Below, one piece after another: positions 1,642 through 56,220 of a DNA stretch of 64,000 nucleotides. The position numbers and the translations under genes were made by a program. Location: positions 22,014 through 86,013 of the forward strand of contig CAVYBO010000002.1 in the NCBI GenBank assembly GCA_963766885.1, read 5' to 3'. The first letter of the stretch is position 1, and each line of letters starts with the position of its first letter. This DNA comes from an uncultured bacterium. GTDB taxonomy: Bacteria > Patescibacteriota > Minisyncoccia > Phycocordibacterales > CAIRYW01. The notes beneath the pieces are model-generated. The model was not told where the DNA came from. It saw only the letters and a list, made by a program, of their open reading frames with translations, and did no database searches.

Positions 1642-2308
1642 ACAAGAAATTAATAGCAAGGATTCTCTTGGTCTGGGACACGCTCTGTTTTTTGCCGGAG
1701 ATTTTAGAAAAGATGCAGATTTTGTAATTAAATATTTTTCTTCGGGGTTAGATTTTGGAATTTCTGGAAATCCTGATATTTTGACTTTTTATAATGAAAA
1801 GCTTTCTGTGGAAGCTGCGCGAGAGATTAGAAGTTATGCCAATATGCTTCCAGTTAAAGAAAAAGAAATTCATATTATTGTCGGTTTTGGCTCTGCAACT
1901 CTGGAAGCTCAAAACGCGCTGCTCAAAGCTGTGGAAGAGCCGGGAATTGCCACAAAGTTTTATGTTATTGCTCCATCAATCAAGTCTTTGATTCCAACTC
2001 TTCAATCCAGACTTATTGAAGTAGAAAACTCAAACGAAAAAGAAGAGATTTTTGAAAAAGAAGTTAAAAGGTTTTTTGCTTCTACAAGCGGAGGAAGAAT
2101 AAAGATTGTGGAAAAAATCGCCGAAGATTTGAAGAACGAAAAAATTTCAAAAAGTGATATTCATATTTTCCTCAAAAAAATCAAAAACGAAGCGCTAAAA
2201 GATTACAAAAAAAACACAGATTTGCTTTCAAGTATTGCGGTGGCTGAAAAGTATCTAGAAAGTTCCAGTTCTGTAAAACAGATTTTGTCGTTGCTCGCTT
2301 TGTGTTAA
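1547..2308 (+). CDS. holB: DNA polymerase III delta-prime subunit-like (HolB); true start probably downstream of mreB stop or non-canonical
   Basis: GHALFFAGD..., ATLEAQNALLKAVEEP, LIPTLQSRL motifs of clamp-loader delta'; the ORF-track start overlaps mreB by 95 nt and no in-frame ATG lies after 1641. Confidence 0.55.
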   Translation: MQKILCTAWLWVRELRLSIWIHIKRQSLQKSKQEINSKDSLGLGHALFFAGDFRKDADFVIKYFSSGLDFGISGNPDILTFYNEKLSVEAAREIRSYANMLPVKEKEIHIIVGFGSATLEAQNALLKAVEEPGIATKFYVIAPSIKSLIPTLQSRLIEVENSNEKEEIFEKEVKRFFASTSGGRIKIVEKIAEDLKNEKISKSDIHIFLKKIKNEALKDYKKNTDLLSSIAVAEKYLESSSSVKQILSLLALC

Positions 2309-2317
2309 AATAACTTT

Positions 2318-2866
2318 ATGCAAGATAATCAAAACCTGAAACAATCCATAAAAGGCATTGAAGAATGGCTGACCAAGGAATTTGGCGGTATTCGCACAGG
2401 CAGGGCAACGCCTTCAATTTTGGATAGTGTCAAAGTAGAAAGCTATGGAAGTATGATGAAAATTCACGAAGTTGCGTCTGTAGCTTCTGAAGATCCTCGA
2501 ACGCTACGAATTGCTCCTTGGGACGCTCAGAATATTAAGTCAATTGAAAAAGCAATAATTTCTTCAAATCTTGGGGTTTCTGTGGCAGTGGATGAAAAAG
2601 GTCTCAGGGTTTCATTTCCTCCGATGACTTCAGAATCCAGAACTCAGTTTTCCAAAATCGCAAAGCAGAAACTTGAGGAAGCCAAAATCAAACTTCGCGC
2701 GGAGAGGAACAAAATTATTGACCATATGGAGAAAAGAAAAAAGGAAGGAGAACTTAGCGAAGACACGATGACAAGACAAAAAAACGAAGTAGAGAAAATA
2801 ATCAAAGAAGCAACTGAGAGTTTTGAAAAACATTATCAGAAAAAGGAAGCGGAGATTTTAGGATAA
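2318..2866 (+). CDS. frr: ribosome recycling factor
   Basis: 182 aa; RIAPWDAQNIKSIEKAI..., RNKIIDHMEKRKKEGELSED pattern of RRF. Confidence 0.9.
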   Translation: MQDNQNLKQSIKGIEEWLTKEFGGIRTGRATPSILDSVKVESYGSMMKIHEVASVASEDPRTLRIAPWDAQNIKSIEKAIISSNLGVSVAVDEKGLRVSFPPMTSESRTQFSKIAKQKLEEAKIKLRAERNKIIDHMEKRKKEGELSEDTMTRQKNEVEKIIKEATESFEKHYQKKEAEILG

Positions 2867-2873
2867 AAATATA

Positions 2874-3962
2874 ATGGAAGTCATTATATTTCTTATAATA
2901 ATCACGGCGCTTGTTTTTGCCCACGAGTTGGGGCATTTTTTGATTGCAAAACTTTTCAAAATGAGAGTGGATGAATTTGCTATTGGATTTCCTCCAAGAC
3001 TTTTGTCTTTTAAAGCTGGCGGCACAGTTTATTCAATCAATTTGTTGCCGCTTGGAGGGTTTGTCAAAATTTTTGGCGAGAATCACGAAGATGTGGAAGA
3101 AAATACAGGTGATGGATTTTCTTCAAAGCCAAGATATGCGCAAGTGCTGGTTTTAATTGCCGGAATTGTTTTTAATATTTTGTTTGCTTGGGTTTTGTTT
3201 TCTACGGCATTGATTGTCGGTGCTCCGGCGCAGGCAGATTTAGGAAGCAAAGGCGCAGAGCTTATGATTTCTGATGTTTTGTCTGGGTCTCCGGCAGAAA
3301 TTGCAGGTATAAAATCAGGCGATGTTGTTAAATCCATAAATGTTTCAGGCTCTTCAAAAATTGTTTCCAATCCATCAACAGACGATATAAAAAATGTTTT
3401 ATCTGGCTCCAATGGTAAAGAAATTGATTTGGATATAGTCAGAAACGGCAAAGATTTGAATTTAAAAATTGAGCCGACCAAAACTCTTTCTGCGGAAAAA
3501 GGTAATTTTGCAATAGGGATTGAGATGATAGAAGTTTCTGTTAAAAAATTAGGATTTTTTCCTTCTATTGTTCAGGGAGGGCAGGCAACTATTAATACTG
3601 TAGAGACGACAACGGTGAGCATTTGGGGATTTTTGGCAGAGGCAATTCATGCCAAAGCAGATTTGAGCCAAGTTTCCGGACCTGTTGGAATTGTTTCAAT
3701 TGTTGGCAGTGCTGCTCAGTTTGGATTTGGTTATCTTTTATCTTTTTCCGCCGTCATTTCCATAAACCTTGCTGTAATAAACTTGATCCCGTTTCCGGCG
3801 CTTGATGGAGGGAGAATTTTTATTGTCATCATCGAAGCCATCCGAAGAAAATCAATCAACGCAAATATCACAAACATCATAAATATGGTTGGATTTTTCA
3901 TATTAATTGCATTTATGATTGTCATAACCTACTCCGATTTGAGCCGTATTTTCGGGTGGTAA
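2874..3962 (+). CDS. rseP: RseP-like site-2 protease (M50 zinc metalloprotease with PDZ domain)
   Basis: HELGHF HExxH motif in TM1, PDZ-like middle region, NLIPFPALDGG LDG motif, multi-TM. Confidence 0.8.
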   Translation: MEVIIFLIIITALVFAHELGHFLIAKLFKMRVDEFAIGFPPRLLSFKAGGTVYSINLLPLGGFVKIFGENHEDVEENTGDGFSSKPRYAQVLVLIAGIVFNILFAWVLFSTALIVGAPAQADLGSKGAELMISDVLSGSPAEIAGIKSGDVVKSINVSGSSKIVSNPSTDDIKNVLSGSNGKEIDLDIVRNGKDLNLKIEPTKTLSAEKGNFAIGIEMIEVSVKKLGFFPSIVQGGQATINTVETTTVSIWGFLAEAIHAKADLSQVSGPVGIVSIVGSAAQFGFGYLLSFSAVISINLAVINLIPFPALDGGRIFIVIIEAIRRKSINANITNIINMVGFFILIAFMIVITYSDLSRIFGW

Positions 3963-4035: not shown

Positions 4036-5266
4036 ATGAGACAATCTAAGCTATTTTCAAAAACACGATTTGAAGCTCCAAAAGACGAGCAATCAAAAAA
4101 CGCCGAGCTTTTGATTCGCTCCGGTTTTATTCACAAAGATATGGCAGGTGTTTATTCTTTCTTGCCTTTAGGACTGAAAGGTTTTAGAAAACATTCGCAA
4201 AATTATCCGCGAGGAAATGAACGCAATCGGAGCGCTAGAGGTTTCCTTGTCTTCGCTTCAGAGCAAAGAACTTTGGGAAAAGACAAACAGATGGAGTGAT
4301 GACGTGGTGGATAATTGGTTTAAGACAACACTCAAAAACGGCACAGAGCTTGGACTTGCTTTTACTCACGAAGAAGCGCTGACAAATATAATGACGGAAT
4401 ATATAAAAAGTTACCGCGATTTGCCGGTTTATGCATATCAATTTCAGACAAAATTCAGAAATGAACTTCGCGCCAAAAGCGGAATTTTGCGAGCCAGGGA
4501 ATTTTTGATGAAGGATCTTTACTCTTTTGATACAGATAAAGAAAAACATGAAATATTTTATGAAAAAGCCAAAGAAGCATACAAAAGAATTTTTGAGCGG
4601 GTAGGCATCGGAGATTCAACTTATCTGACATTTGCTTCAGGAGGCACTTTTGCCAAATTTTCCCATGAATTCCAGACCCTAACTTCTGCGGGAGAAGACA
4701 TTATTTATGTCGATAAGAAGAAGAAAATCGCTATAAATCAGGAGGTTTTGGATGATGAAGTGCTTGATGAGCTTGGACTTGACAGGGTAGAGCTGGTGGA
4801 AGAAAAAGCGGTTGAAGTTGGCAATATTTTTTCTTTGGCGTATAAATACTCTGAGGCGCTTGATCTTAAGTATCTGGATCAAAAAGGCGAAGCTAGACCT
4901 GTATTTATGGGTAGTTATGGAATCGGCCTAGGCAGATTGATGGGCGCTGTGGCAGAGATTTTTGGCAAAGAAGAAAGCATGGTTTGGCCGGAGGAGTTAT
5001 CGCCATTCAAACTGCATTTGATTTGTCTTTCAATGGGTGATGAAGAAGTTTCAAAAGTAAGCGAAAAAATATATAAAGAGTTGATTGAAGCGGGAATGGA
5101 AGTGCTTTTTGACGATAGAGATTTGAGGGCAGGAGAAAAATTGGCAGATGCTGATTTGATAGGAATTCCGATAAGAATTATTTCAAGCAAAAAAACAATG
5201 GAGAAAAACACTTTTGAAATCAAAGATGCCAAAACAGAAGAGATTAATTATTTGGACTGCAAATGA
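4036..5266 (+). CDS. proS: prolyl-tRNA synthetase (archaeal/eukaryal-type class II) with an apparent +1 frameshift near 4177-4180
   Basis: N-term MRQSKLF...SFLPLGLK in frame 1 continues as KVLENIRKIIREEMNAIGALEV... in frame 2 (ORFs 4036..4299 and 4217..5266); one extra A in the run GAAAG restores a contiguous ProRS. Confidence 0.75.
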
Positions 5267-5292
5267 AATCATAAAAAAATACAGCAACAAAT

Positions 5293-6354
5293 ATGGCAAA
5301 ACTTAAAGACAGAATTTTTGGAAGATTTTCAAACGATATCGGTATAGATTTGGGTACAGCAAACACTCTGGTCTGGATGAAAGGCGAAGGAATTGTTGTT
5401 AACGAACCATCTGTGGTTGCTTTGAATCAAAAAACTGGCCAGGTTGTGGCAGTCGGGCAAGCGGCAAAGGATATGATAGGCAGGACTCCAGGGCACATTG
5501 TGGCTGTAAGGCCTGTTGTTGAAGGGGTGATTTCTGATTTTGAAGTATGTGAAGAAATGCTTAATTATTTGATAAATAAAGCCAGTGAGAAAAAGCCAAA
5601 GTGGCTTGGTCCAAGAGTGGTCATTGGAGTGCCATCCGGAATAACCAATGTTGAAAGAAGGGCCGTCAAAGATGCTGCCAAAAACGCTGGCGCAAGAGAA
5701 GTGTATATTATTGAAGAGCCGATGGCTGGAGCAATCGGCATCGGACTTCCTATAAAAGATCCACTCGGAAGCATGGTTATAGATATCGGCGGCGGCACCA
5801 CGGATGTGGCGGTTATTTCTTTGGGTGGACTTGTCCATTCGCGTAACATAAAAATTGCGGGCGATAAATTAAACAACGATATAATTTCTTATTTAAGAAA
5901 TGAGTTTAAAATTCTTATTGGAGAAAAAACAGCGGAGGATATAAAAATAAACGTTGGCAATGCTTCTAATATAGATTCTCCGATGGAAATTATGGTTCGT
6001 GGACGTGACCTTATTACAGGACTTCCTCGCGAGGTTGTGGTTACTGACAACGATGTCAAAGAAGCTATAGGTCTTTCTATAGACACCCTGATTGAATCAA
6101 TCAAAGAAGTGATCGAAATTACACCTCCAGAAGTGGTTTCCGATCTTATGTATAAAGGCATTTATGTGATCGGTGGCGGGGCGCTGCTACGCGGACTGAA
6201 AGAACTTCTTGAAGAAAGTCTTAAAATGCCGATACATGTTGCCGATGATCCGCTTACTGCTGTCGTCAGAGGCACGGGCGCAGTGCTTTCTGATATCGAT
6301 AGTTTTAAGGATGCTTTGATACAAAAGGAGGATGAAATGCCTTTCATTCAATAA
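5293..6354 (+). CDS. mreB: rod shape-determining protein MreB
   Basis: 353 aa; GIDLGTANTLVW, DIGGGTTDVAVISLGG; followed by mreC, mreD and PBP2. Confidence 0.9.
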   Translation: MAKLKDRIFGRFSNDIGIDLGTANTLVWMKGEGIVVNEPSVVALNQKTGQVVAVGQAAKDMIGRTPGHIVAVRPVVEGVISDFEVCEEMLNYLINKASEKKPKWLGPRVVIGVPSGITNVERRAVKDAAKNAGAREVYIIEEPMAGAIGIGLPIKDPLGSMVIDIGGGTTDVAVISLGGLVHSRNIKIAGDKLNNDIISYLRNEFKILIGEKTAEDIKINVGNASNIDSPMEIMVRGRDLITGLPREVVVTDNDVKEAIGLSIDTLIESIKEVIEITPPEVVSDLMYKGIYVIGGGALLRGLKELLEESLKMPIHVADDPLTAVVRGTGAVLSDIDSFKDALIQKEDEMPFIQ

Positions 6355-6357
6355 AAA

Positions 6358-7101
6358 ATGATGAAAAGAAATAACGAGAGCGGTTTGCTCAAATTTGCTG
6401 TTAAGATTTTTGTTTTGGGAATTATTGTGATAGCGCTGCTTTTTCCTTTTAGTGAATTGTTAAAAAAATGGTCGCTTGAAGGAAAGAATTTTACAAATAA
6501 TTTTCCGGGAATGTCTTTTTTTTACAGCAAAGCCTTTCTTTATAAGCAAAATCAGAATTTAGAGAATCAGGTGGCCGTTCTTCAAACACAGGTTTCCGAC
6601 AGGAAACTTTTAGAAGACAAACTCCAGGATTTTTCAAGTTTTGAAAAAGTTTCTGCTGGTTCATTGGCGGCTGAGGTTCTTACTACGCCAGGCAGTTCAA
6701 TTTATGATGTTCTTACGATTTCTGCAGGAAGCGATCAGTCTGTCAAACAGGGAGATATTATTTATTCTGGCAATACCAAAATCGGCTTTATATCAAAAGT
6801 ATTCAGCAATATTTCCGAAGCTACGCTTTTTTCTTCTCCAGGAGAAAAAATCAGTGCAACAATTTATCCTGAAGGCATAACTTTGGATATTGACGGTATT
6901 GGCGGAGGTCTTTTTGAGGCGCTTTTACCCAAGGGTCAGAATATAGATGTTGGAGATTTGGCAGTCGATTTGAAAAATAAACAAGTTATGGGCATAATAG
7001 AAAGCGTTTCTGCCGGAGGAAATAACTCGTTTAACAAACTTATAATAAGGACTCCCGTGAATCCTTTTGAATTAAAATGGGTATCAGTAGCGATAAAATA
7101 A
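6358..7101 (+). CDS. mreC: rod shape-determining protein MreC
   Basis: N-terminal TM, coiled-coil (LENQVAVLQTQVSDRKLLED) then beta-rich domain; position between mreB and mreD. Confidence 0.7.
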   Translation: MMKRNNESGLLKFAVKIFVLGIIVIALLFPFSELLKKWSLEGKNFTNNFPGMSFFYSKAFLYKQNQNLENQVAVLQTQVSDRKLLEDKLQDFSSFEKVSAGSLAAEVLTTPGSSIYDVLTISAGSDQSVKQGDIIYSGNTKIGFISKVFSNISEATLFSSPGEKISATIYPEGITLDIDGIGGGLFEALLPKGQNIDVGDLAVDLKNKQVMGIIESVSAGGNNSFNKLIIRTPVNPFELKWVSVAIK

Positions 7102-7349
7102 TTTGGAGCTTAAGCGCTTTTGTTGCGGCTATGCTGTCAGTATTTTTTTTGCCGTGGTATATTTCTATTTTTTTTCTTATAATTCTCATCTTATCAGGAT
7201 ATAACGCTATTTCAATAATAACAGCCGTTCTCTTGGATAATTTATACGGACAGGGATCAGTATTGCAAGAGCATTTGTTCTTCTTGGCGACGTTTATTTT
7301 CTTGCTTATTGTTTTTGTAGTAAAAAAAAATCTAAGGTGGTTAAATTAA
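7077..7349 (+). CDS. mreD: MreD-like small membrane protein
   Basis: 90 aa, three hydrophobic helices, overlaps the mreC end; position-based call. Confidence 0.45.
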   Translation: MGISSDKIIWSLSAFVAAMLSVFFLPWYISIFFLIILILSGYNAISIITAVLLDNLYGQGSVLQEHLFFLATFIFLLIVFVVKKNLRWLN

Positions 7350-9068
7350 ATGTTTGGCAGAAAAAGAACTAGAAAGAAAAAAAGCAACGGAAATATTGAT
7401 CCTGATGAAATATTCCTAGATTCATCCAATCTTCCTCAGTTTGATAAGCAGCAATTTGAGGGAAGAATTGAAAGGCCGATTGGAAAAAAAACTTTTTTTA
7501 TTTTAGGATTTTTTTTGGCCTTGATTTTTTTTGTTATTTCTATAAGAGCCTTTGATTTAGATGTGCTTAATTTTTCTTTTTACAGCCAAAAGAGCGCCAA
7601 TAATAGGCTCCGAAAGGACACGGTGTTTGCTTATCGCGGAGTTGTCACTGACAGAAACGGAGTTCCCCTGGCATGGAATGATCCGTCTTCAGGCGGACCG
7701 TTTCCTTTGAGAAAATATACAAGTGCCCCGGGATTTTCTCTACTTTTGGGATTTGTAAGATATCCGCGCAAAGATTCATCGGGCTTTTATTATGATAATG
7801 AAATTTCTGGACAAGACGGGATAGAGAAATATTTTGATAGTCAGCTTGCTGGACAAAACGGAGTCAAACTAACGGAAGTTGATTCTGCCGGCAAAACTGT
7901 TTCTCAAAGTGTTTTGAATCAGCCAAAAAATGGCGATAATATAAAGTTGTCTATTGATGCTGGGATTCAAGAACAACTTTTTAATTCCATCAAAAGCGCG
8001 GTTGATAAGGATGGTTTTTTAGGCGGAGCAGCGGTCATAATGGACGCAAAGACTGGGGAAGTTATCGCCATTACTTCATATCCTGAATATAGCTCGCAGG
8101 TTATGACTGATGCAACCGATACACCCCTGATAGATTCATATCTTAAAGAATCAGGAAATCCTTTTTTGAATATGGCGGTTTACGGACTTTTTGCTCCGGG
8201 CTCAACTATCAAGCCATATCTTGCTACCGCAGCTTTGAAAGAGGGTACGATTGATCCTTCCAAAAAGATTTTGAGTACCGGAGAACTTGTGGTTCCAAAT
8301 CCTTACGATCCATCAAAGCCAAATATTTTCAAAGACTGGAAAGTGAACGGCTGGACAAATATGGAGCAGGCTTTGGCTGTCTCTTCTGATGTGTATTTCT
8401 ATGAACTCGGAGGAGGATATAAAGATCAAGTTGGTTTGGGTATTTCAAGGATTGATGAATATTTAAATGATTATTTATTCGGAACACCCACTCAAGGATT
8501 TTTTGCAGGCCCAACAGGCAATATTTCAAGTCCGGAGTGGAAGGAAAAAAATTTTGATGGAGCAAGCTGGCTTTTGGGAGACACTTATCACACGGCGATA
8601 GGCCAATATGGCACAACTGTGACACCTCTTCAGCTTGCAAGGGCGCTGACTGGAATTGTTAATAATGGAACTATTCTTGAGCCTGTAATTTTGAAAGGAC
8701 AAGTTGGACAAAAAACAAATCTTCCGAATATTTCAGCTAGCGATTTTCAGGTGGTCAAAGACGGAATGAGGCTTGCTGTAACAAGCGGTACAGGAATTGC
8801 ATTAAATATACCAGGTGTGGAAGTTGCCGCTAAAACAGGAACAGCCCAGTTGGGATTGAATAACGAGTATGTTCATTCTTGGGTTGAAGGGTTTTTTCCA
8901 TACAACAATCCGAGGTATACTTTCGCCCTTATTCTTGAAAGTGGCCCAGATTCTTATCAGGTCAGCTCTATGAGAGCAATGAGCAATACTATAAGCTGGA
9001 TAGTCAAAAATGAGCCTAATTATTTAGGTAATTCTAGTACCACAACAGCCACTACAACCACTGTTTAA
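7350..9068 (+). CDS. mrdA: penicillin-binding protein 2 (elongasome transpeptidase)
   Basis: 572 aa; N-terminal TM, SxxK (GSTIKP), SxN (SSD), KTG (KTGTAQ) motifs; follows mreBCD. Confidence 0.85.
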   Translation: MFGRKRTRKKKSNGNIDPDEIFLDSSNLPQFDKQQFEGRIERPIGKKTFFILGFFLALIFFVISIRAFDLDVLNFSFYSQKSANNRLRKDTVFAYRGVVTDRNGVPLAWNDPSSGGPFPLRKYTSAPGFSLLLGFVRYPRKDSSGFYYDNEISGQDGIEKYFDSQLAGQNGVKLTEVDSAGKTVSQSVLNQPKNGDNIKLSIDAGIQEQLFNSIKSAVDKDGFLGGAAVIMDAKTGEVIAITSYPEYSSQVMTDATDTPLIDSYLKESGNPFLNMAVYGLFAPGSTIKPYLATAALKEGTIDPSKKILSTGELVVPNPYDPSKPNIFKDWKVNGWTNMEQALAVSSDVYFYELGGGYKDQVGLGISRIDEYLNDYLFGTPTQGFFAGPTGNISSPEWKEKNFDGASWLLGDTYHTAIGQYGTTVTPLQLARALTGIVNNGTILEPVILKGQVGQKTNLPNISASDFQVVKDGMRLAVTSGTGIALNIPGVEVAAKTGTAQLGLNNEYVHSWVEGFFPYNNPRYTFALILESGPDSYQVSSMRAMSNTISWIVKNEPNYLGNSSTTTATTTTV

Positions 9069-11108: not shown

Positions 11109-11126
11109 TTTTTATAAAAAGTTAAA

Positions 11127-11158
11127 CCGCGCAGAACGAATCTTGCGCGGTTATTTTT
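11127..11158 (+). terminator. intrinsic terminator after lysS
   Basis: ccgcgcaga-acgaa-tcttgcgcgg hairpin followed by ttattttt. Confidence 0.5.
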
Positions 11159-11203
11159 AGGGGATTGAACCCACGGCTTCTTTGCCGAGCGGAGATACCG
11201 CTA

Positions 11204-11764
11204 TTACAATTCCATGGCGGTGGCCATGAGGTATTGCATATTGCTGACCAGGTTTTCGTGGAACTTGAACCCGGGATCCTCAGGGTGAGTGAACGGACGT
11301 CCGGTTTGAAGACCTGACGGGAAGGTTTTACCTTCCGTTTCCATCCACTCCGCGAAGTCGGCGAGCTTGTCGAACCATTCCTCCGACATGGCGCCGGCGA
11401 ACTGGCCGAGTTCCTTGTTGGTGAGGGTGAACTCACAACCGAGAGCGACCGCCGCTTCCTGCCCGAAGAAGACTTCCCGCGGAAAGATGGCGTCCTGAAC
11501 ACCGCAGTAGCGGATGTCGTAGAACACCGGAGCGGCGCGAAAGGTTGTGAGTTCCCCCGCGTGCTCGATTTGCCCCAGAATGACGATCAAACTGGGGAAA
11601 GGGTTGGTGGAGTTGTAGTCGTAGTTTTCCGCGTCCGTGGGTTCCACGACGCGCCAGATTTGGCCGGACAGAATTTCCGCCGGCTTGGTTTGGTTCTGCG
11701 GCGGCATATCCAGCAAAGGATGGAGCGCCAGAGGAAGGATTTTTTTGAGGTCTGCGATTTTCAT
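11204..11764 (-). CDS. hypothetical protein encoded in a GC-rich (about 58%) patch; likely horizontally acquired
   Basis: 186-aa ORF MKIADLKKILPLALHP...; local GC far above the about 35% flanks, and the overlapping shadow ORFs in other frames are typical of GC-rich DNA; no recognisable family. Confidence 0.45.
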   Translation of the reverse strand: MKIADLKKILPLALHPLLDMPPQNQTKPAEILSGQIWRVVEPTDAENYDYNSTNPFPSLIVILGQIEHAGELTTFRAAPVFYDIRYCGVQDAIFPREVFFGQEAAVALGCEFTLTNKELGQFAGAMSEEWFDKLADFAEWMETEGKTFPSGLQTGRPFTHPEDPGFKFHENLVSNMQYLMATAMEL

Positions 11765-12023
11765 AAGTGAGTTGAGTGTGGTTGGAAGGACAATAATCCG
11801 CTTGGCAATGTGCTAGCAAGTCAATTACAGTCTTTCTTCCAAACTCAACTTATAGGTCAGCTTTCAAAGTTCTAATACTTCTATATAATAGCACTTTTTA
11901 TACAAAAAGTCAACATCAATAAAAAACATTGTAAATCCTATCTAAAATCAAATTCGTGAGGTTTTGGAAAGACCAAACCTTTTCTTTTTTATATGTGGAA
12001 AACTGTGGATTGCGCAAAACAAT

Positions 12024-12062
12024 AAGTGGTATAGAATGGTATGTAAGTGGTAAAAAGTGGTA
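12024..12062 (+). promoter_or_regulatory. MraZ-box-like direct repeats (4 x AAGTGGTA at about 10-bp spacing) upstream of mraZ
   Basis: aAGTGGTAtagaaTGGTAtgtAAGTGGTAaaAAGTGGTAag, about 35 nt upstream of the mraZ ATG; MraZ binds GTGG-type direct repeats in its own promoter. Confidence 0.5.
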
Positions 12063-12096
12063 AGTTTTTGGAGTTGAAGTTTGGTCGGAAAAAATC

Positions 12097-12531
12097 ATGT
12101 TAATAGGAGAATACAAACATTCAATAGACGAAAAAAACCGAATGTCGCTGCCAAGCAAATTCCGCAAGGAATTGGGCAAGAAAGTGGTGGCGACATACGG
12201 GCTTGAACAATGTTTGTTTGTCTACGAAATATCGGAATGGAACAGAATCGCTGAGGATATTTCAAAGCTTGGAATGTTAAAAAGCGATACGCGAGAATTT
12301 AACAGATTTATGTTTGGAGGAGCGGTAGAAATTGAGGTTGATGCGCTTGGCAGAATTTTGGTTCCAGAATATCTCAAAAAATATGCGGATCTCAAGGGAA
12401 ATGCCGTGGTCATCGGAGTTCACAAAAGGCTTGAAATCTGGAACGAGAAGAAGTGGGAGGAATACAAGAAAGCGATAGTTTCAAAAGCAGATGGATTAGC
12501 AGAAAAGCTTTCGGAAGCAGGTGCTTTCTAA
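12097..12531 (+). CDS. mraZ: transcriptional regulator MraZ
   Basis: 144 aa; MLIGEYKHSIDEKNRMSLPSKFR, duplicated SpoVT/AbrB-like halves. Confidence 0.9.
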   Translation: MLIGEYKHSIDEKNRMSLPSKFRKELGKKVVATYGLEQCLFVYEISEWNRIAEDISKLGMLKSDTREFNRFMFGGAVEIEVDALGRILVPEYLKKYADLKGNAVVIGVHKRLEIWNEKKWEEYKKAIVSKADGLAEKLSEAGAF

Positions 12532-13444
12532 AGAATTTCAGAGAGAAGTGAACGCACACAAGACAGTTCTTTTACAAGAAACAATTGAAGGTTTGAAGCC
12601 GAAGCTTGGCGGAGTTTATTTAGACGGCACCATAAACGGTGCTGGCGCTTCAGAGCAATTGGCAATCCAAATTGGCAAAGACGGGACAATCGTTGGAATG
12701 GATTTGGATCTTGATGCGCTTGAAAAGGGAAGTGAACGAGTCAAGAAAACAGGAGTCAAATTTTTCGGCATCAATGACAACTTTCGGAATCTGGACAAAG
12801 CTCTCGATTCTCTAGAAATAGAAAAAATTGATGGCGCGATGTTTGACCTTGGATTATCGAGCAACCAGCTTGATTTATCGGGCAGGGGATTCACTTTTCA
12901 AAAGGACGAACCGCTTCTAATGACCTTCAAATCTAATCCAACGGAAAAGGATTTGACTGCATATGACGTAGTGAATAAATTTGAGCAGAAAAATCTAGAA
13001 ACGATTATCAGATACTACGGCGGAGAAAATTTTGCAGGACGCATTGCTCGAGTTATATGCGAAGCAAGAATACAAAAACCGATTGAAACTACTTCTGAAC
13101 TAGCAGAATTGATTTATCAAGCAGTCCCAGCAATTTACAGAAGAGGCAAGATTCATCCAGCCACCAAAACTTTTCAGGCCATCCGAGTTGTGGTGAACGA
13201 CGAGATTGAATCTTTGAAGGAAGGTTTGGAAAAATCACTCGAAAGACTGAATTCTGGAGGAAGAGTTGTGGTGATAAGTTTTGAGAGTTTAACGGACGGA
13301 GTGGCCAAAAGATTTTTTAAAGAGAAAGCCAAAGATAAAAAGATTTTAATAATAACAAAGAAACCGATTGTTCCAACAGAAAGAGAAATTAGCGATAATC
13401 CACGATCAAGAAGTTCCAAATTAAGAATCGCGGAAAAGATTTAA
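12521..13444 (+). CDS. rsmH: 16S rRNA (cytosine1402-N4)-methyltransferase RsmH
   Basis: 307 aa; VLLQETIEGL...YLDGT.NGAG..., follows mraZ. Confidence 0.9.
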   Translation: MLSKEFQREVNAHKTVLLQETIEGLKPKLGGVYLDGTINGAGASEQLAIQIGKDGTIVGMDLDLDALEKGSERVKKTGVKFFGINDNFRNLDKALDSLEIEKIDGAMFDLGLSSNQLDLSGRGFTFQKDEPLLMTFKSNPTEKDLTAYDVVNKFEQKNLETIIRYYGGENFAGRIARVICEARIQKPIETTSELAELIYQAVPAIYRRGKIHPATKTFQAIRVVVNDEIESLKEGLEKSLERLNSGGRVVVISFESLTDGVAKRFFKEKAKDKKILIITKKPIVPTEREISDNPRSRSSKLRIAEKI

Positions 13445-13492
13445 GAGAAATTTAATAAAAAAATTTAAAAATTAACAAAATAAAAAAATACC

Positions 13493-13792
13493 ATGACAAG
13501 CATGCCATCTCAGTACAAATTCAAAAAAACTTTCTGGATGTTTTCCAGTGCGTCTTTTGGCATGATTGTTATTTATGTTTTTCTTGTATTTTTCACTGTT
13601 TCCCATACTCTTTCAAGGGAAAATAGTGAAAAATCAATTCAAAATATCCTTTCAAATATAAGCGAGAAAGAATCCACTTATATGAGCCTTGAGGCTTCTA
13701 TTACGCCAGATCTTGCCACAGCCAAAGGATTTGTAGATGCAAATAACACTATAGTCGTCAGGGCGGGAGCAACTTTGACTATGCGCAATTAA
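13493..13792 (+). CDS. ftsL: FtsL-like cell division membrane protein (by position)
   Basis: 99 aa, single TM, sits between rsmH and ftsI as in dcw clusters. Confidence 0.45.
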   Translation: MTSMPSQYKFKKTFWMFSSASFGMIVIYVFLVFFTVSHTLSRENSEKSIQNILSNISEKESTYMSLEASITPDLATAKGFVDANNTIVVRAGATLTMRN

Positions 13793-13799
13793 TTAAATA

Positions 13800-15497
13800 A
13801 TGAAATTTCTCAACCCAATCAGGCTAATATCGATTTTAATCATATTGGCGGGTTTTATCTTTGTCTTAAAACTTTACGACATACAAATTGTCAAACATAA
13901 TGAATATGTTCAAATCGCCAATAATCAGTACCAAAGACCGCAGGGATTTTTTGATAGAGGAACAATATATTTTGAGGATAAAGACGGCAATAAAATATCG
14001 GCGGCTACAGTAAAATCAGGATATATTCTTGCTATAAATCCAGAACTTATTGTTAATAAGCAAGATGCTTACAATAAACTATCATCGGTTGTAAGTGGTA
14101 TTGATAAGACGGATTTTTTAGACAAAGCCTCAGAGCAAGATACATATGAAGTAATTCAAAAGGAGGTTGATTCTGATACAGGAAAAAAAATACAAGCACT
14201 CAATATTTCAGGAGTAATTCTTGATAGTGACAACTGGAGATTTTACCCTGGAAATTCAACTGCTTCACAGGTGCTCGGCATCGTTGGCTATCAGGGCAAT
14301 GATTTGGCTGGAAGGTATGGTTTGGAAGAAGAATATAACTCTGTTTTGGAAAGGAATCAGAGCGACCTTTATACTAATTTTTTTGTTCAAATATTTTCAA
14401 ATATAAAATCAAGCGTGGACTCTGATAATTCAGAGGGAGATATTGTTACAACAATTGAGCCGAATGTTCAAGCTGCTCTTGAAAATACTCTTCAGAAAAT
14501 TCAAACAACATGGTCTTCCGAAGAAACAGGCGGCATTATAATGAATCCGCAAAACGGAGAAATAATCGCCATGGCTGCGTATCCCAATTTTAACCCCAAT
14601 GATTTCTCAGATGTCAGTTCTGTTGGTGTGTTTAAAAATCCATTAGTTGAAGATGTTAGAGAAATGGGCTCAATAATGAAAGTTGTAACTATGGCTTCTG
14701 GAATTGATGCTGGCCTTGTAACTGCCTCCACAACTTATGATGATGTTGGATATGTGAAAGCGGACGGCAGCACAATTTATAACTTTGACAAGCAAGGAAG
14801 GGGAGTGATTACGATGCAGACTGTACTTGATGATTCGCTCAACACAGGCGCATCGTTTGTAGAGCAAAAACTTGGCAACAAAAGATTTACGGACTATTTT
14901 TTTAAGTTTGGTCTTGGTGAAAAAACCAATATTGATTTGCCGGACGAAGCGCAAGACCTCGTTTCAAATCTTCAAAGCACTAGAGATATTGAGCATATTA
15001 CTGCTTCGTACGGACAGGGAATTGCCCTAACTCCAATTGCCACTGCCCGAGCCCTTGCTGCTGTGGCCAATGGCGGGTATTTGGTCCAGCCTCACGTTGT
15101 CAAAGAAGCCGATCCTATTGAAGGAATTCCTTATTATCCATTTGCCAGCTATAAGCCGGTACAAGTGATTTCAAAATCTGCTTCACAGAAAGTAACGGCA
15201 ATGCTTATAAACGTTGTTGATACAGCTCTGCTTGGGGGGGCAGGAAAGAATCCACACTATACTGTTGCTGCCAAAACTGGTACAGCTCAGATTCCTTCAC
15301 CAAGTGGAGGATATTATTCTGACAGGTATCTTCACTCTTTCATGGGTTATTTTCCTGCTACAAACCCTCAATTTTTAATTTTAATGTATACTGTTTACCC
15401 AAAAACGCAGTTATATGCAGCGTCAACCCTGGCACAGCCGTTTTTGGACTTGAGCCATTTTATTATAAATTATTACTCAATCCCGCCTGACAGATAA
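13800..15497 (+). CDS. ftsI: peptidoglycan D,D-transpeptidase FtsI (PBP3)
   Basis: 565 aa; N-term TM, SxxK (SIMKV), SxN (SLNTGA), KTG (KTGTAQ). Confidence 0.85.
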   Translation: MKFLNPIRLISILIILAGFIFVLKLYDIQIVKHNEYVQIANNQYQRPQGFFDRGTIYFEDKDGNKISAATVKSGYILAINPELIVNKQDAYNKLSSVVSGIDKTDFLDKASEQDTYEVIQKEVDSDTGKKIQALNISGVILDSDNWRFYPGNSTASQVLGIVGYQGNDLAGRYGLEEEYNSVLERNQSDLYTNFFVQIFSNIKSSVDSDNSEGDIVTTIEPNVQAALENTLQKIQTTWSSEETGGIIMNPQNGEIIAMAAYPNFNPNDFSDVSSVGVFKNPLVEDVREMGSIMKVVTMASGIDAGLVTASTTYDDVGYVKADGSTIYNFDKQGRGVITMQTVLDDSLNTGASFVEQKLGNKRFTDYFFKFGLGEKTNIDLPDEAQDLVSNLQSTRDIEHITASYGQGIALTPIATARALAAVANGGYLVQPHVVKEADPIEGIPYYPFASYKPVQVISKSASQKVTAMLINVVDTALLGGAGKNPHYTVAAKTGTAQIPSPSGGYYSDRYLHSFMGYFPATNPQFLILMYTVYPKTQLYAASTLAQPFLDLSHFIINYYSIPPDR

Positions 15498-15503
15498 TAC
15501 AAC

Positions 15504-16796
15504 ATGAAAAATTATTTAAAAAAAATCATTGTTTTTATTCTTACAATCGAGGCTAAGCTTGTCCTAAGGAAATACAAGCCTAAAATTATTGCTGTCACGG
15601 GAAGCGCCGGCAAGACATCCACCAAGGACGCTATTTATACCGCTATTTCTTCATCGCTTCATGTTCGCAAAAGCGCCAAAAGCTACAACAGCGATATAGG
15701 AATTCCTCTGACCATTCTTGGCCTTGAAAATCCTTGGAATAATTATAAAAAATGGCTAACAAATATTCTAAAAGGCGCCATTGTTGCTTTGAAGAAGCAA
15801 AAATATCCAGAATATCTTGTTCTTGAAATCGGCGCAGACAGGCCAGGAGAAATCAAGCGTCTTATGAAATGGATTCACCCCGATATCTCAGTGGTTACGC
15901 TTATAGGCAAAGTGCCAGTGCATGTTGAGTTTTACGATTCCGTTGAGAGTGTTATAAAAGAAAAAAGTGAAATTATAAAAAATCTCAAACCGGATGGTTT
16001 TGCGATTTTGAATGCTGACGATGAGGATGTGCGCGATATGAGGCATTTAACAGGCGCCAAAACGATAACATTCGGCATAAAGAATAAGGCAGATGTTTCT
16101 GTTGTTTTTCCGTCTATTATCTATGATGAATCCGGTGCGCCAATTGGCATGAGCGCCAAGATTGATGTTTCGGGATCGAGTTTTCCTATTATCATAAATG
16201 GTGCGCTTGGTATTCAGCAGATTTATCCTGTGGCCGCGGCTTTTGCTGTAGCTATGGTTAAGAATTTAAATCTTCTGGAAGTTGCCACAGCATTCAAAGA
16301 TCACGAAGTGCCAAAAGGCAGAGTCAAGATTATCAAAGGCATAAAAGATTCAACTATAATTGATGATACTTACAACGCTTCTCCGGCAGCTGTTGAAGAA
16401 GGTTTGAATATTTTAAGCGAAATAAAAACTCACGGCAAAAAAATCGCAATTCTGGGCGATATGCTTGAACTTGGCAGGCATTCATCTTCTGAACACAGAA
16501 GAATCGGCGAGATAGCAGGAAAAATTTGCAATGTTGTTATTGGCGTGGGTATCCGTTCGCGCGAGCTTGCCAATGCCGCGCAAGTGGCAGGAATTTCCAA
16601 GAGTGATGTTTATTTTGTTGATGATTCAATTCAGGCGGGGGAGACCGCGGCCAAGTTGATTGACACTGGAGACGTTGTTTACATCAAAGGCTCGCAAGGA
16701 ATGAGAATGGAAAAAACAGTAGAAAAAATAATGCAGGAAAAACACAAAAAAGAAGAACTTTTGGTGCGACAAGAAAAAGAATGGTTGGAGAGGTAA
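15504..16796 (+). CDS. murF: UDP-N-acetylmuramoyl-tripeptide--D-alanyl-D-alanine ligase MurF
   Basis: 430 aa; IAVTGSAGKTSTKD P-loop, NSDIGIPLTIL, DDTYNASP, GDMLELG motifs. Confidence 0.8.
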   Translation: MKNYLKKIIVFILTIEAKLVLRKYKPKIIAVTGSAGKTSTKDAIYTAISSSLHVRKSAKSYNSDIGIPLTILGLENPWNNYKKWLTNILKGAIVALKKQKYPEYLVLEIGADRPGEIKRLMKWIHPDISVVTLIGKVPVHVEFYDSVESVIKEKSEIIKNLKPDGFAILNADDEDVRDMRHLTGAKTITFGIKNKADVSVVFPSIIYDESGAPIGMSAKIDVSGSSFPIIINGALGIQQIYPVAAAFAVAMVKNLNLLEVATAFKDHEVPKGRVKIIKGIKDSTIIDDTYNASPAAVEEGLNILSEIKTHGKKIAILGDMLELGRHSSSEHRRIGEIAGKICNVVIGVGIRSRELANAAQVAGISKSDVYFVDDSIQAGETAAKLIDTGDVVYIKGSQGMRMEKTVEKIMQEKHKKEELLVRQEKEWLER

Positions 16797-17470: not shown

Positions 17471-18523
17471 GTAAAGATACACGTATAGGTCCAATAGCTT
17501 GGCACCACTTTGGTGGGTTAACATCAAAGGTATGCCATACACAACAAATAAGAATATGCCGAAGATTAGGCAACAAGCAGCTGATTTAGTCAGAAGAGGT
17601 TGGAGCAGAAGAAAGGTTGGTCGATATTTGGGATTTCACCATACAGCGATATCTGAATGGGTCAGAATTGCAAAGAAAATAGGGTATCATCCCATACTAA
17701 CAAGATCATCAAGACCGAAACATCATCCCCAACAATTGGATGAAAGAATCATTAGAAAAATCGTGGAGAAAAGATTAGAGCATGGTCGATATGCGGAAGC
17801 GGTACACAGGGAGCTTCAAAACGATGGTGTGAAAGTTTCTTTGTCATCAGTCAAAAGAACTCTCGACCGGAAGAGACTCATCAAAAAGAGAAGTCCGTAC
17901 AAACGATTCCATCCTCACCAAGATCGCCCATATCCCTTGAAATCAGGCGATTTGGTGCAAATTGATACTATTCATCGGATGGTTGATGGAAAGAAAAGAC
18001 TGTACGTGTTTGTGGTCATTGATGTATTTTCAAGATGGACATACGCAAAAGCATTTGAACGGATGAATGCAAGAACAAGTATTGATTTTGTCAGAGCAGC
18101 GCAAAGAGAATCGTCCTTCCATTTTGATATGTTGCAGTCAGACCATGGACCAGAGTTTGGTAAGTGGTTTGTCTCAAATATCAAAAAGAGCCACAGGTAT
18201 ACCAGAATTGGCAAACCCAATGACAATGCTCATATCGAAAGATTCAACAGGACTCTACAGGAAGAATGCCTGGACAAAGTTCCTAACGATATTCGAATTA
18301 TCAATTGTGCTTTGAAGAAATATTTGAGATATTACAATTTTGAGCGAGTGCACGGAGGAATCAATTATTCAATTCCCATGCAGGTGGTGTGAAGCTATTG
18401 ATTAGATTACGGTATTCAAAATCTTTCGTACCAAGTTAATTGAATGGCAAAGATTTGGAGAGATGCTTTCTAAACAAGATTAGACGCTTGCAATATTTCT
18501 ATACTTTTGTACCATATTAAACA
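17471..18523 (+). mobile_element. IS481-family insertion sequence (putative ends)
   Basis: Transposase ORF flanked by imperfect inverted ends beginning TGT (17471 tgtaaagatacacgtatagg versus reverse complement of 18498-18523 tgtttaatatggtacaaaagtataga); ends are approximate. Confidence 0.4.
17499..18392 (+). CDS. IS481-family (DDE/rve integrase core) transposase
   Basis: N-terminal HTH (GWSRRKVGRYLGFHHTAISEWV), DDE triad (QIDTI, SDHGPEF, NAHIERFNRTL); the track start is TTG, internal ATGs at 17532/17556 are more likely starts. Confidence 0.8.
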   Translation: MAPLWWVNIKGMPYTTNKNMPKIRQQAADLVRRGWSRRKVGRYLGFHHTAISEWVRIAKKIGYHPILTRSSRPKHHPQQLDERIIRKIVEKRLEHGRYAEAVHRELQNDGVKVSLSSVKRTLDRKRLIKKRSPYKRFHPHQDRPYPLKSGDLVQIDTIHRMVDGKKRLYVFVVIDVFSRWTYAKAFERMNARTSIDFVRAAQRESSFHFDMLQSDHGPEFGKWFVSNIKKSHRYTRIGKPNDNAHIERFNRTLQEECLDKVPNDIRIINCALKKYLRYYNFERVHGGINYSIPMQVV

Positions 18524-19363: not shown

Positions 19364-19455
19364 TTATAAAAAATCCCATTAGGTTGCTTCAAAAAACCTT
19401 TGAAAAATATGGTTAGAAAAATCTATGACCCTACCGGGAATTGAACCCGGATTTA
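19364..19455. repeat. direct repeat copy B (abuts and overlaps the 3' half of tRNA-Glu)
   Basis: ttataaaaaatcccattaggttgcttcaaaaaacctttgaaaaatatggttagaaaaatctatgaccc followed by the intact tRNA. Confidence 0.5.
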
Positions 19456-19497
19456 AGCCTTGAGAAGGCTCCGTCCTAACCGTTAGACGATAGGGCC
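19426..19497 (-). tRNA. tRNA-Glu (anticodon CUC)
   Basis: Manual cloverleaf: acceptor GGCCCTA/TAGGGTC, D-stem GTCT/GGAC, anticodon stem GAGCC/GGCTT with loop TTCTCAA, T-arm CCGGG-TTCAATT-CCCGG, 72 nt, no encoded CCA. Confidence 0.85.
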
Positions 19498-19609
19498 AAG
19501 TCAAACAATTTTACACAAAATCAAAGAAAAATCTATTTTAGATGAAACTTTTTGGTATGTGATACGATATAAAAAAGAGGTCTTTTTATTAATTTAATTT
19601 TAAAAATAT

Positions 19610-20006
19610 ATGAATAATAACAAAGTTGTGCATTTTGAAATCGTGGCCGTGGATCCTCTGCGAGCCACTGATTTCTATACAAAGGTTTTTGGTTGGGAAA
19701 TTAAAAAGTGGGAAGAAGGAGAAATGGATTATTGGATGATTTAACACTACTCCGCAAAATACTCCAGGAGCAATCAACGGCGGTTTGCGAAAGGAAATGG
19801 GAACAGATCACAAAGAAATGACTAAATCTGTAAATGGCTTTGTGTCCATTGTGGCTGTGGATTCTATAGATGATATATTAGGAAAAATAGAAAAATTCGG
19901 CGGAAAAATTATGCAGCCAAAAATGAATGTTCCAAAAGTTGGCTGGCTTGCGTATTGTATGGACACAGAGGGAAATATGTTTGGGGTATTGCAGCCAGAG
20001 ATGTAG
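19610..20006 (+). pseudogene. glyoxalase/bleomycin-resistance (VOC) family protein interrupted by a 1-nt frameshift near 19739-19744
   Basis: N-half [31 protein letters not shown]...DYWMI* (frame 2) and C-half ...TTPQNTPGAINGGLRKEMG...VDSIDDILGKIEKFGGKI...GWLAYCMDTEGNMFGVLQ (frame 0); removing one T in gaTTTaac joins them. Confidence 0.55.
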
Positions 20007-20156: not shown

Positions 20157-21308
20157 TTGGATTTTTCTCATAAAGAAATTATATCAAAGTTTCAAATAAT
20201 ATATACTATTGCTATGGCAATTTTTAGAAAGGAAGCTTTAAAGCATTTTTATGAAAAATACGAGCGGCATATTGGTTCGCTGACAATTATTATCGGATTC
20301 GTTTTTGATAATGTTGCCATCCGCCAGTCTGTAATTAACACCCAAACCCAAGTATTTTTGACTTATATTATTCTAGCGGGACTTTCAATTCTTATTTTGC
20401 ATTGGATAGAGGGTAAAGAGGGGAGAAAAGAAAATTACGCAACACTGCATTTTTGGATTTTTCTTTTGATGCAGTTTAGTATTGGAAGCTTGTTTAGCAT
20501 GTTCTTTGTTTTTTATTCTCGCGGTGTATCGATTGCAACTTCGTGGCCGTTTCTGCTTTTGCTTTTTGGAAATCTTGTCGGCAATGAATTATTTAAAAAG
20601 TATTATTCGCAATTAAGCTTGCAGGTTTCGCTTTATTTTATTGGTATTTTTTCTTTCTTTATTTATTTCATGCCGACAGTACTTCATGAAATGAGCGTAA
20701 GAGTTTTTATTTACAGCGGCATCACTAGTCTACTCACAGTTTTTGTTTTTATGCGTCTTCTGGAATTAATTTCAATCCAAAGAGTCAGGAAGTGGCGACC
20801 CAGGATTGCAATCGGTGTTTTGTTTGTATATTTGTTGATAAACGTTTTTTATTTTACAAACATCATTCCGCCTGTACCGCTTGTGATGAAAGAGGGTGGT
20901 GTCTATCATAATTTTTCTGTAAATAGCGAAGGGGATTATGTGGTTGAAGCGGAACAAAAATCATGGAGCAGTGTTTTTGATGAATATCCAATATATCATC
21001 GTGCTCCGAATGAAATAGTATATGTGGTTACCTCTGTTTTTGCTCCGGCACAATTGGATACAACTTTGATTCATGATTGGCAATATTTTGATCCTGTAAC
21101 AAAAAAGTGGCAGAGTGAAAGCAAAGTAAAAGTGCCTATTGTTGGCGGCCGGGAAGGCGGTTACAGATTTTATTCACTGAAACAAAGTATTACCTCTGGA
21201 AAATGGAGAGTGGATGTGGAGACAACTCAAGGACAAATTGTAGGACAAATAAAATTTGAAATTGTTGACAGCACTTCAACTCCGAGTTTGTCTAAAGTGG
21301 TGTATTAA
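20157..21308 (+). CDS. polytopic membrane protein with a C-terminal beta-rich extracytoplasmic domain (DUF2914-like?)
   Basis: 383 aa; about 8 TM helices then a 130-aa soluble domain (GKWRVDVETTQGQIVGQIKFEIV). Confidence 0.5.
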   Translation: MDFSHKEIISKFQIIYTIAMAIFRKEALKHFYEKYERHIGSLTIIIGFVFDNVAIRQSVINTQTQVFLTYIILAGLSILILHWIEGKEGRKENYATLHFWIFLLMQFSIGSLFSMFFVFYSRGVSIATSWPFLLLLFGNLVGNELFKKYYSQLSLQVSLYFIGIFSFFIYFMPTVLHEMSVRVFIYSGITSLLTVFVFMRLLELISIQRVRKWRPRIAIGVLFVYLLINVFYFTNIIPPVPLVMKEGGVYHNFSVNSEGDYVVEAEQKSWSSVFDEYPIYHRAPNEIVYVVTSVFAPAQLDTTLIHDWQYFDPVTKKWQSESKVKVPIVGGREGGYRFYSLKQSITSGKWRVDVETTQGQIVGQIKFEIVDSTSTPSLSKVVY

Positions 21309-21310
21309 AA

Positions 21311-21520
21311 TTAATGATAGTCCTGTTTATTATTCAATATGAAATAAGCTTGCTTTAATGCGTCTTCAAGTTCAATTGTTCCATTTGTAACATTTTCCTT
21401 CAATCTATTAAGTGTCGGAATTTCATGATCATTAAATCCTATAAGAGATATTTGTTGAGTAATCATTCCAATTTCTGCCAAAACCCCTTCTTTAGTTAGT
21501 TCTATTTTTATTTCTTCCAT
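21311..21520 (-). CDS. small hypothetical protein
   Basis: 69-aa ORF downstream of and co-oriented with the 21581-21925 ORF. Confidence 0.3.
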   Translation of the reverse strand: MEEIKIELTKEGVLAEIGMITQQISLIGFNDHEIPTLNRLKENVTNGTIELEDALKQAYFILNNKQDYH

Positions 21521-21580
21521 GATGTTAATTATATCAAATAAATTTTATAAAAAATTGAACCGTTGCTTTTCAACACGGTT

Positions 21581-21925
21581 CTAGTAATCATCCATATGGC
21601 CGGCAAGCCTAAAACTTCTTTGAAGCATAGCTTCGTGAGCGAGAGCGTAACCTCGTTGACGCGCTTTTTCGATCCTTGAGATTTCCTCCAAGAAATCCTT
21701 TTCATCTTGCATAACCTTACGTCTCTTTGAGATCTTGAATTGGGCGCGCCGATTCAGTTCCTTTGCAATGTCTCTAGCATTCACACCGTGTTCAGTGGCT
21801 ACCGTGTGTATTGCCAGTCTCATCTGGATTCCTTGATCGTTTACAAGGTCTCTGGCCAAGTTGGCAAGACTGCCTATTCTCGTGTTAATAAAGGGCATTG
21901 TTTTCTCCTGCCCATAATTATGCAA
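21581..21925 (-). CDS. hypothetical protein with a possible HTH
   Basis: 114 aa (likely start MPFINTR at 21898); HGVNARDIAKELNRRAQ helix-turn-helix-like segment. Confidence 0.35.
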   Translation of the reverse strand: MHNYGQEKTMPFINTRIGSLANLARDLVNDQGIQMRLAIHTVATEHGVNARDIAKELNRRAQFKISKRRKVMQDEKDFLEEISRIEKARQRGYALAHEAMLQRSFRLAGHMDDY

Positions 21926-21948
21926 TGAATATAGATTTTATTCAATAG

Positions 21949-22395
21949 CTAAAACATCCCATCCACGACGGCTTTGACATCTCCACCGTCCGCTTTGCCT
22001 TTGAGTTCTTTCATCAAGAGGCCGATAAGCATATTAGCTTTGGATTTGTCTGTAATCCCTAGCTCTGATTTTTTAGCTTCGGCGATTTTTTTGATTTCCT
22101 CAACACCCATCATTTGGGGAAGTAGAGGTTCAAGTATCGAAAGTTCCTTTTTTTCATTTTCTGCAAGCTCCAGGCGGCCGCCTTTTTGGAATTGTTCTAT
22201 TGAATCCTTGCGTTGTTTGGAAAGACGTCTAATAACAGCGATGCAATCTTCGTCTGGAAGCGTGTCTTGAGGAGTTTTGCCTTTGGCAACAAGTTCGTTG
22301 GTAAGCGCAGTGGAAATACCTCTGTAGACGTTTAAAGCGACTTCATCTCGAGCTTTCATAGATTCTTTAATTTTTTCTCTAATTTCATTTTGCAT
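21949..22395 (-). CDS. yqeY: GatB/YqeY domain protein
   Basis: 148 aa; MQNEIREKIKESMKARDEVALNVYRGISTAL typical YqeY. Confidence 0.8.
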   Translation of the reverse strand: MQNEIREKIKESMKARDEVALNVYRGISTALTNELVAKGKTPQDTLPDEDCIAVIRRLSKQRKDSIEQFQKGGRLELAENEKKELSILEPLLPQMMGVEEIKKIAEAKKSELGITDKSKANMLIGLLMKELKGKADGGDVKAVVDGMF

Positions 22396-22409
22396 ACTAT
22401 AATACTAAC

Positions 22410-40438: not shown

Positions 40439-40493
40439 TTAGCTATTTTAGCCTTTTTTGGCCTAAATTTCAAAGGAAATCTTACCTAGATTG

Positions 40494-42559: not shown

Positions 42560-42560
42560 A

Positions 42561-43505: not shown

Positions 43506-43572
43506 ATTAATTTAATATGAAGATAATAGCAAAAAGAATCAAAATTTAACAATCGGCGCAAAAATTCTAAAT

Positions 43573-44268: not shown

Positions 44269-44278
44269 TACTTTTAAA

Positions 44279-45952: not shown

Positions 45953-45955
45953 AAA

Positions 45956-48189: not shown

Positions 48190-48191
48190 AT

Positions 48192-50834: not shown

Positions 50835-50896
50835 AATGAATTACTAATTACTTGACTGAAATATAATTATATCACACCAGAAAACATTTTTTGGCT

Positions 50897-51286: not shown

Positions 51287-51300
51287 TACATTATTATAGC

Positions 51301-53091: not shown

Positions 53092-53102
53092 ATTTTGATG
53101 GT

Positions 53103-54176: not shown

Positions 54177-54185
54177 TTCTCACTT

Positions 54186-56063: not shown

Positions 56064-56220
56064 AATTTTTGTTTAATTAAGTTTAATAAAGCCTAAGTAA
56101 ATAAAATTATCCAAAAGTTTTTATGGTACGGACATAATTTCTGCTGAAATTTGTCCTCGTTCTCGCGCCGTCGCGCTCCGAAAGCCCAAAAAACATTTGA
56201 TAATTTTATTTTCTGAACGA

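Follow-up and report, generated by a model that had tools for sequence, protein, structure and literature searches.

The window, by which we mean the whole 64-kb stretch of DNA that was analysed, is gene-dense with a G+C content of 38.5%, and close to its start lies proS, the gene for prolyl-tRNA synthetase (ProRS). This gene is interrupted by two single surplus bases (+1 each), the first of which moves the reading frame from frame 1 to frame 2 and the second from frame 2 to frame 3. Two mreB paralogues, both full length (628-1641 and 5293-6354), lie less than 5 kb apart, the second of them overlapping the end of proS and being followed by mreC and mrdA. A third +1 break is found further downstream in a gene of the VOC/glyoxalase family. 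The features concerned are as follows:

4036 to 4179, plus strand: proS segment 1, ProRS residues 1-48 (MRQSKLF...LPLGLK), in frame 1, with homology to ProRS residues 1-52
4171 to 4182, plus strand: proS break 1, GGACTGAAAGGT, where a single surplus base moves frame 1 to frame 2; AAAGG at 4177-4181 is its best placement
4180 to 4299, plus strand: out-of-frame read-through of frame 1, GFRKHSQNYPRGNERNR... to a stop, with no homology; the 87-residue ORF has no Pfam match
4181 to 5254, plus strand: proS segment 2, ProRS residues ~49-406, class II catalytic core and anticodon-binding domain, in frame 2
5254 to 5266, plus strand: proS break 2, GGACTGCAAATGA, where a single surplus base moves frame 2 to frame 3
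5256 to 5306, plus strand: proS segment 3, C-terminal tail (T/D)ANEIIKKYSNKYGKT and stop, in frame 3, with a 14-nt overlap with the start of mreB
5293 to 6354, plus strand: second copy of mreB, intact, with an identical protein in the independent Logan contig L081
19610 to 20006, plus strand: VOC/glyoxalase-family gene with the third +1 break, ATG ATT T/AA C at 19739-19745, frame 2 to frame 3

The frame 1 ORF of proS (4036 to 4299) reads MRQSKLFSKTRFEAPKDEQSKNAELLIRSGFIHKDMAGVYSFLPLGLK (MRQSKLF...SFLPLGLK) and continues with 39 residues that have no homology. Frame 2 is blocked by TAG at 4169-71 and TGA at 4175-77, is open from 4178, where it reads (K)VLENIRKIIREEMNAIGALEV..., and runs until TGA at 5264-66; the protein P0001 is this frame 2 ORF taken from the ATG at 4217. 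When the nearest homologue is compared with the window by tblastn it matches in two pieces, one covering residues 1-52 in frame 1 (4036-4191) and the other residues 48-408 in frame 2 (4178-5260). Moreover, the joined protein aligns without a gap through the junction with the solved structures PDB 5znj and 2j3l, from which it follows that there is exactly one surplus nucleotide at break 1. The initial annotation had described a ProRS that begins in frame 1 and continues in frame 2, and this is confirmed by the ORF translations, the tblastn pieces and the structure alignment. It had further attributed the shift to an extra A at 4177-4180. One nucleotide is indeed surplus, but the run of A residues is only 3 nt long (4177-4179), with GG next to it at 4180-81, and as deletion of either an A or a G yields the same protein (LGLKV), the surplus base can equally well be described in ways other than as an extra A. 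In the columns of the ProRS family at this point, position 47 is Leu in 112 of 116 homologues, and position 48 is occupied by Arg in 101 and by Lys in 12.

The same annotation treated proS as broken once, and thus missed a second +1 break at ~5254-5264. Frame 2 ends ...EINYLDCK at TGA 5264-66, and all homologues extend 10-16 residues past this stop, which is premature because of the surplus base at break 2. The tail is found in frame 3, as ..NEIIKKYSNKYGKT and a stop or ...(T)ANEIIKKYSNKYGKT and a stop, until TAA at 5304-06, and its sequence agrees with the C-terminus of the nearest homologue, P0002 (YLNTEEIIKKYSSR); at the proS loci of relatives, tblastn matches reach query residue 421. Once one base is deleted at each break, a clean proS ORF of 422 codons is obtained, without in-frame stops.

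The repaired protein scores 400.3 bits against TIGR00409 (bacterial-type ProRS), above the curated cut-off of 306.7, with PF00587 at residues 95-308 and PF03129 (HGTP anticodon-binding) at residues 327-403. In an alignment with 116 homologues it keeps 129 of the 132 near-invariant columns (those conserved in at least 97% of the homologues), and this is within the spread of intact homologues, which deviate at 0-8 of the 132 (mean 1.2). Among the matches listed, 119 of 119 ProRS homologues are intact, with lengths of 407-472 amino acids, and at 80 of 80 loci in GTDB representatives, a set that does not include the source genome and in which the nearest ProRS is only 72% identical, proS lies in a single frame (1263 nt for residues 1-421 at L001). 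These relatives belong to 'Candidatus Paceibacterota', Taylorbacteria, Nomurabacteria and similar groups. A comparison with orthologous proS genes had been proposed at the outset, and in it the gene is intact in all of the roughly 200 relatives. A search for an alternative copy had also been proposed; tblastn with the nearest homologue finds no second proS in the window, which covers 64 kb of a contig of 596,164 bp. We conclude that the real proS is most likely a single intact ORF of 422 codons for a bacterial-type ProRS without an INS editing domain. Short ProRS proteins of this kind (~410-420 aa) are common to the lineage and to hundreds of Patescibacteria orthologues.

We also considered whether the rest of the window is in good order. 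All major stop-to-stop ORFs were scanned against NCBIfam models, and some 60 other recognisable genes match essentially from end to end, the only other break being that in the VOC/glyoxalase gene. Full-length genes include both copies of mreB, frr, rseP, mrdA, greA, lysS, mraZ, rsmH, ftsI, murF, dnaB, cysS, pyrE/F, gltX, murG, ftsW, mraY, aspS, trpS, dnaK/J, grpE, rpoA and many genes for ribosomal proteins. Three breaks in the window amount to about 1 per 21 kb, which is the mark of a good but not perfect assembly. All three consist of a single extra base in runs of 3 nt or less. The window contains ~300 A/T runs of at least 6 nt, including a T12 inside aspS, and outside proS and the VOC gene the recognisable genes are unbroken, so that the profile expected of homopolymer errors does not fit. 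Two of the three breaks fall within one gene of 1.3 kb, which is mildly unexpected for random errors (~4-6%). Transcriptional slippage can be rejected, as none of the breaks has a long A/T run, and so can reassignment of UGA (code 25), given that frame 2 is also interrupted by the TAG at 4169-71 and that the genes of the window are long under code 11.

The break in the VOC/glyoxalase gene is of a somewhat different character, in that it is not adjacent to GGAC, the tetranucleotide discussed below. When repaired, the gene encodes a protein of 131 amino acids that covers positions 2-119 of the 121 of PF00903, and its homologues are 129-131 amino acids long. A search for an intact copy in Logan found none. 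In the Pacebacteria MAG GCA_021734945.1 (JAIPIA010000001.1; L087, 1486-1764) the orthologue is a 5'-truncated remnant of 87 amino acids starting from about residue 40, and the N-terminal module is absent from all frames of L087. It thus seems that this gene decays for real in the group, and its break in the window may be real. A gene for tRNA-Glu(CTC) (19425-19498, minus strand) and an IS481-family transposase (17499-18392), ~1.2 kb upstream, are its neighbours.

An independent view of the same DNA is available from Logan, in which each SRA run has been assembled as a k=31 de Bruijn graph, with singleton k-mers dropped and the graph simplified with Minia3 (PMC12424806). It has exact matches to this genome's MreB, DnaK, Frr, FtsI, FtsW and YqeY. 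The contigs that we retrieved all come from run ERR11630394, an accession for which a literature search gave no hit, and cover 31,164 nt of the window (1847-2915, 5260-8711, 11123-16707, 20639-22925 and 37684-56454), with break 1 and the VOC break lying outside this cover. For rseP and both proS fragments an exact-protein look-up gave no record, and hence no independent contig across break 1, and two scans of JGI metagenomes with flexible-gap patterns around both proS breaks gave 0 hits. Break 2, on the other hand, is touched directly, for contig L081 starts exactly at 5260, inside the break and directly 3' of GGACTG. Of the ten observed contig ends, 0.0017 would be expected by chance in the 11-nt stretch of this break. 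No repeated k-mer within the window accounts for the start of the contig at this point, and other contigs reach 18.8 kb, which means that breaks are infrequent in the run.

Over the 31 kb that can be compared, the window and Logan disagree at three sites, two of which adjoin GGAC:

8357: A in the window and G in Logan, at the base directly after GGAC; synonymous, in mrdA
11295 to 11302 (site 11298): 1-nt indel, GGACGTCC in the window (GGAC-GTCC, an 8-nt palindrome) and GGACAGTCC in Logan contig L086
41602: T12 in the window and T8CT3 in Logan, in aspS; KKKK to KEKK (Lys/Glu)

Read towards the deposit, the two substitutions are of the types G>A and C>T. At 11298 the Logan version is GGACTG on the coding minus strand, where the window has GGACG, and the indel throws a conserved hypothetical protein (11204-11764, minus strand) out of frame, truncating it to ...GLQTGLSVHSP followed by a stop. 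P0135, the one homologue from outside (70% identity), goes on with ...GLTTGRPFTHIEDPGIKFHENLATNMQYLMTTVMDLQ, as does the version in the window. The GGACTG insertion in Logan is therefore wrong at this site and the deposit is right, and thus data from this organism do contain spurious +1 insertions at GGAC; Logan, carrying the faulty version here, is no gold standard. Altogether there are 13 Logan contig ends or differences, and 5 of these fall within 0-2 nt on the 3' side of a plus-strand GGAC, whereas 0.5% of all positions do so as background (P about 4e-9; 1e-7 with both strands allowed). Of the 10 contig ends, 7 lie away from GGAC.

The same context is seen at the breaks in proS, both of which are preceded by the hexamer GGACTG (TTAGGACTGAAAGG and TTTGGACTGCAAATGA), a sequence with 9 copies in the window over both strands. 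This does not amount to a deterministic rule. GGAC occurs 221 times in the window and GGACG 44 times, most sites being without a problem, and GGACG as a fixed error motif is rejected by ~25 such sites inside Logan contigs that agree perfectly. At 6193 in mreB, GGACTGAAAG presents GGA CTG AAA G in the codon phase that it has at break 1, and here it is read in frame. We also tried a T insertion (GGACG to GGACTG) as one rule for both proS breaks; its reversal restores the ORF but places Arg47 at break 1, a residue found in 0 of 116 homologues, and the surplus base at break 1 is thus more likely to lie in AAAGG than to be the T.

Some other features of the window may be recorded here. A ThiF-like ORF (47014-48189) and a nitroreductase-like ORF (45956-47014), both on the minus strand with an ATGA overlap, correspond to the N- and C-terminal halves, respectively, of the Rv1355c-family model, in which they are fused (positions 5-349 and 372-713 of the 722 in the profile), and as the split is identical in the Logan contig this is probably a natural split gene. 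The 29 intact genes whose stop codons were counted end in TAA (23), TAG (5) or TGA (1), so that TGA is strikingly rare, and the ThiF-like ORF is the sole gene that ends in it. Frr (2318-2866) has a cluster mate of at least 90% identity, P0125, on another contig of 283,896 nt (NCBI/Logan/ENA), which may be the closest available relative of the organism.

We propose, as the likely explanation, that both breaks in proS are context-linked consensus errors in the deposit, rather than a classic homopolymer error or a biological feature. This proposal is based on the observations that proS is essential and otherwise pristine, with both breaks private to this genome, that an independent assembly shows ambiguity at the DNA level exactly at break 2, and that 1-nt and substitution ambiguities recur at GGAC, one of them proven wrong. 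The deposit would carry one spurious extra base at ~4177-4181 and another at ~5254-5259, both belonging to a class of 1-nt ambiguities that clusters a few bases 3' of GGAC in the sequencing data of this organism. The likely cause would be a base modification, or some other effect of context, that disturbed long-read basecalling and whose errors outlasted polishing where accurate coverage was patchy; reads without the extra base should then exist at the proS sites. A single closed contig of 596 kb suggests a long-read backbone, and we infer that GGAC could be a modified motif and the platform nanopore.

The initial annotation had favoured a sequencing error in a homopolymer. That a sequence error is the best explanation holds, but the homopolymer part does not fare well. 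In this account ordinary random or homopolymer indel errors, unrelated to GGAC, would be miscalls in the AAA/GG and TTT/GG runs, and each break can indeed be described as a run that is longer by one base. A break rate of ~1 per 21 kb is also what polished long-read assemblies typically show. However, the runs in question are only 2-3 nt long, while those of 6 nt or more, up to T12, stay in frame; the two proS breaks have in common a hexamer of which there are just 9 copies in the window; and the disagreements with the independent assembly cluster at GGAC. We therefore regard such errors as unlikely.

A somewhat poorer candidate still, to our minds, is real polymorphism, in which the consensus would have picked defective proS alleles from a sub-population while other cells are intact. 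The Logan graph does break at site 2, and the SNP-like differences at 8357 (synonymous) and 41602 (Lys/Glu) suggest more than one variant. Nevertheless, two independent lethal lesions at appreciable frequency in one essential gene are implausible, and their recurrence beside GGAC would lack a known mutational mechanism.

It is also possible in principle, though we think it very improbable, that proS is a very recent true pseudogene and that proline is charged by another ProRS, encoded outside the window in the genome of 596 kb. Two lesions in a gene are what relaxed selection would produce, and the VOC gene in the window is broken as well, with a truncated remnant in a related MAG. Against this, proS carries no further lesions, its 129 of 132 conserved positions and lack of in-frame stops in the repaired ORF bearing out the view of the initial annotation that a pseudogene was unlikely. 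Furthermore, no second proS lies within the 64-kb window, and there is ambiguity at the DNA level at break 2. Genomes of ~596 kb rarely keep duplicate synthetases, which likewise counts against a second gene. An old pseudogene is excluded by the conservation of ProRS.

Finally, the extra bases could be real, either as two +1 frameshifts at AAA codons preceded by GGACUG or as the outcome of a GGAC-directed 1-nt insertion in vivo in the lineage. We give this little credence; if true, it would be the first double +1 recoding in an aminoacyl-tRNA synthetase, and the evidence is against it. Least probable of all is programmed +1 frameshifting, which had already been judged unlikely from the sequence. 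Here slippage of tRNA-Lys would take place at CTG-AAA-G (site 1, from AAA to AAG) and at AAA-UGA (site 2, from AAA), and the GGA upstream would help as an internal element of the Shine-Dalgarno-like kind known from prfB. The two sites share AAA as their last zero-frame codon and a GGA located 3-4 nt before it, and at site 2 UGA is in the A site. Yet the shift sites are conserved in 0 of ~200 relatives (119 proteins and 80 loci; nearest 72% identity, so that a shift of very recent origin would escape the comparison), and the heptamer is not avoided in intact genes, AAA G.. being read in frame 255 times in 29 genes, AAA GGT 12 times and CTG AAA G 3 times (mreB, lysS and dnaJ). The A-site codon at site 1, GGT, is common (13.4 per 1000), re-pairing from AAA to AAU is poor at site 2, and neither site has a Pro codon that would give an autoregulatory logic. 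Nor does programmed frameshifting predict the DNA-level ambiguity in the independent assembly.

If, as we propose, the breaks are context-linked consensus errors, the biology is ordinary and the organism has an intact essential ProRS. The public archives would then hold a closed 596-kb Patescibacteria genome with frame-breaking errors that lie beside a short motif and outside homopolymers, where homopolymer-aware polishing or filters would miss them. Automated annotation would label an essential synthetase a pseudogene, and inferences on completeness and metabolism would be deflated.

The proposal can be set beside three known systems. The first is the INS-less bacterial ProRS of the PRK12325 or Rhodopseudomonas palustris type (PDB 2i4l), with which the repaired product of 409-422 amino acids shares the class II core and the anticodon-binding domain, and with which it aligns end to end (2i4l, and positions 1-427 of the 437 of the PRK12325 profile). 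It differs in scoring 377 bits, under the strict PRK12325 cut-off of 550, and its membership of the ProRS family therefore rests on the TIGR00409 score and on the hundreds of equally long orthologues in Patescibacteria. The second is the prfB (RF2) site, CUU UGA C, which likewise has a +1 shift, a G-rich element situated 3-4 nt upstream of the shift codon and, as at site 2, UGA as the A-site codon. Unlike prfB, however, the proS sites are without conservation in relatives and lack a slow codon (site 1) or good re-pairing (site 2), and the shift heptamer is read normally in other genes. The third is the class of modification-linked systematic consensus errors in nanopore assemblies of bacteria (the Hammerhead study, PMC11610603; Lohde et al., 2024, PMC11610573). 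For R10.4.1 data, modification-induced assembly errors of the C>T and G>A types have been reported, and these are chiefly substitutions (PMC11610603). In proS the damaging events are instead 1-nt insertions, and most GGAC sites are unaffected. Nevertheless, the published errors likewise occur at a short motif and not in long homopolymers, they likewise persist in assemblies that are otherwise accurate, and their substitution types, C>T and G>A, match those found here.
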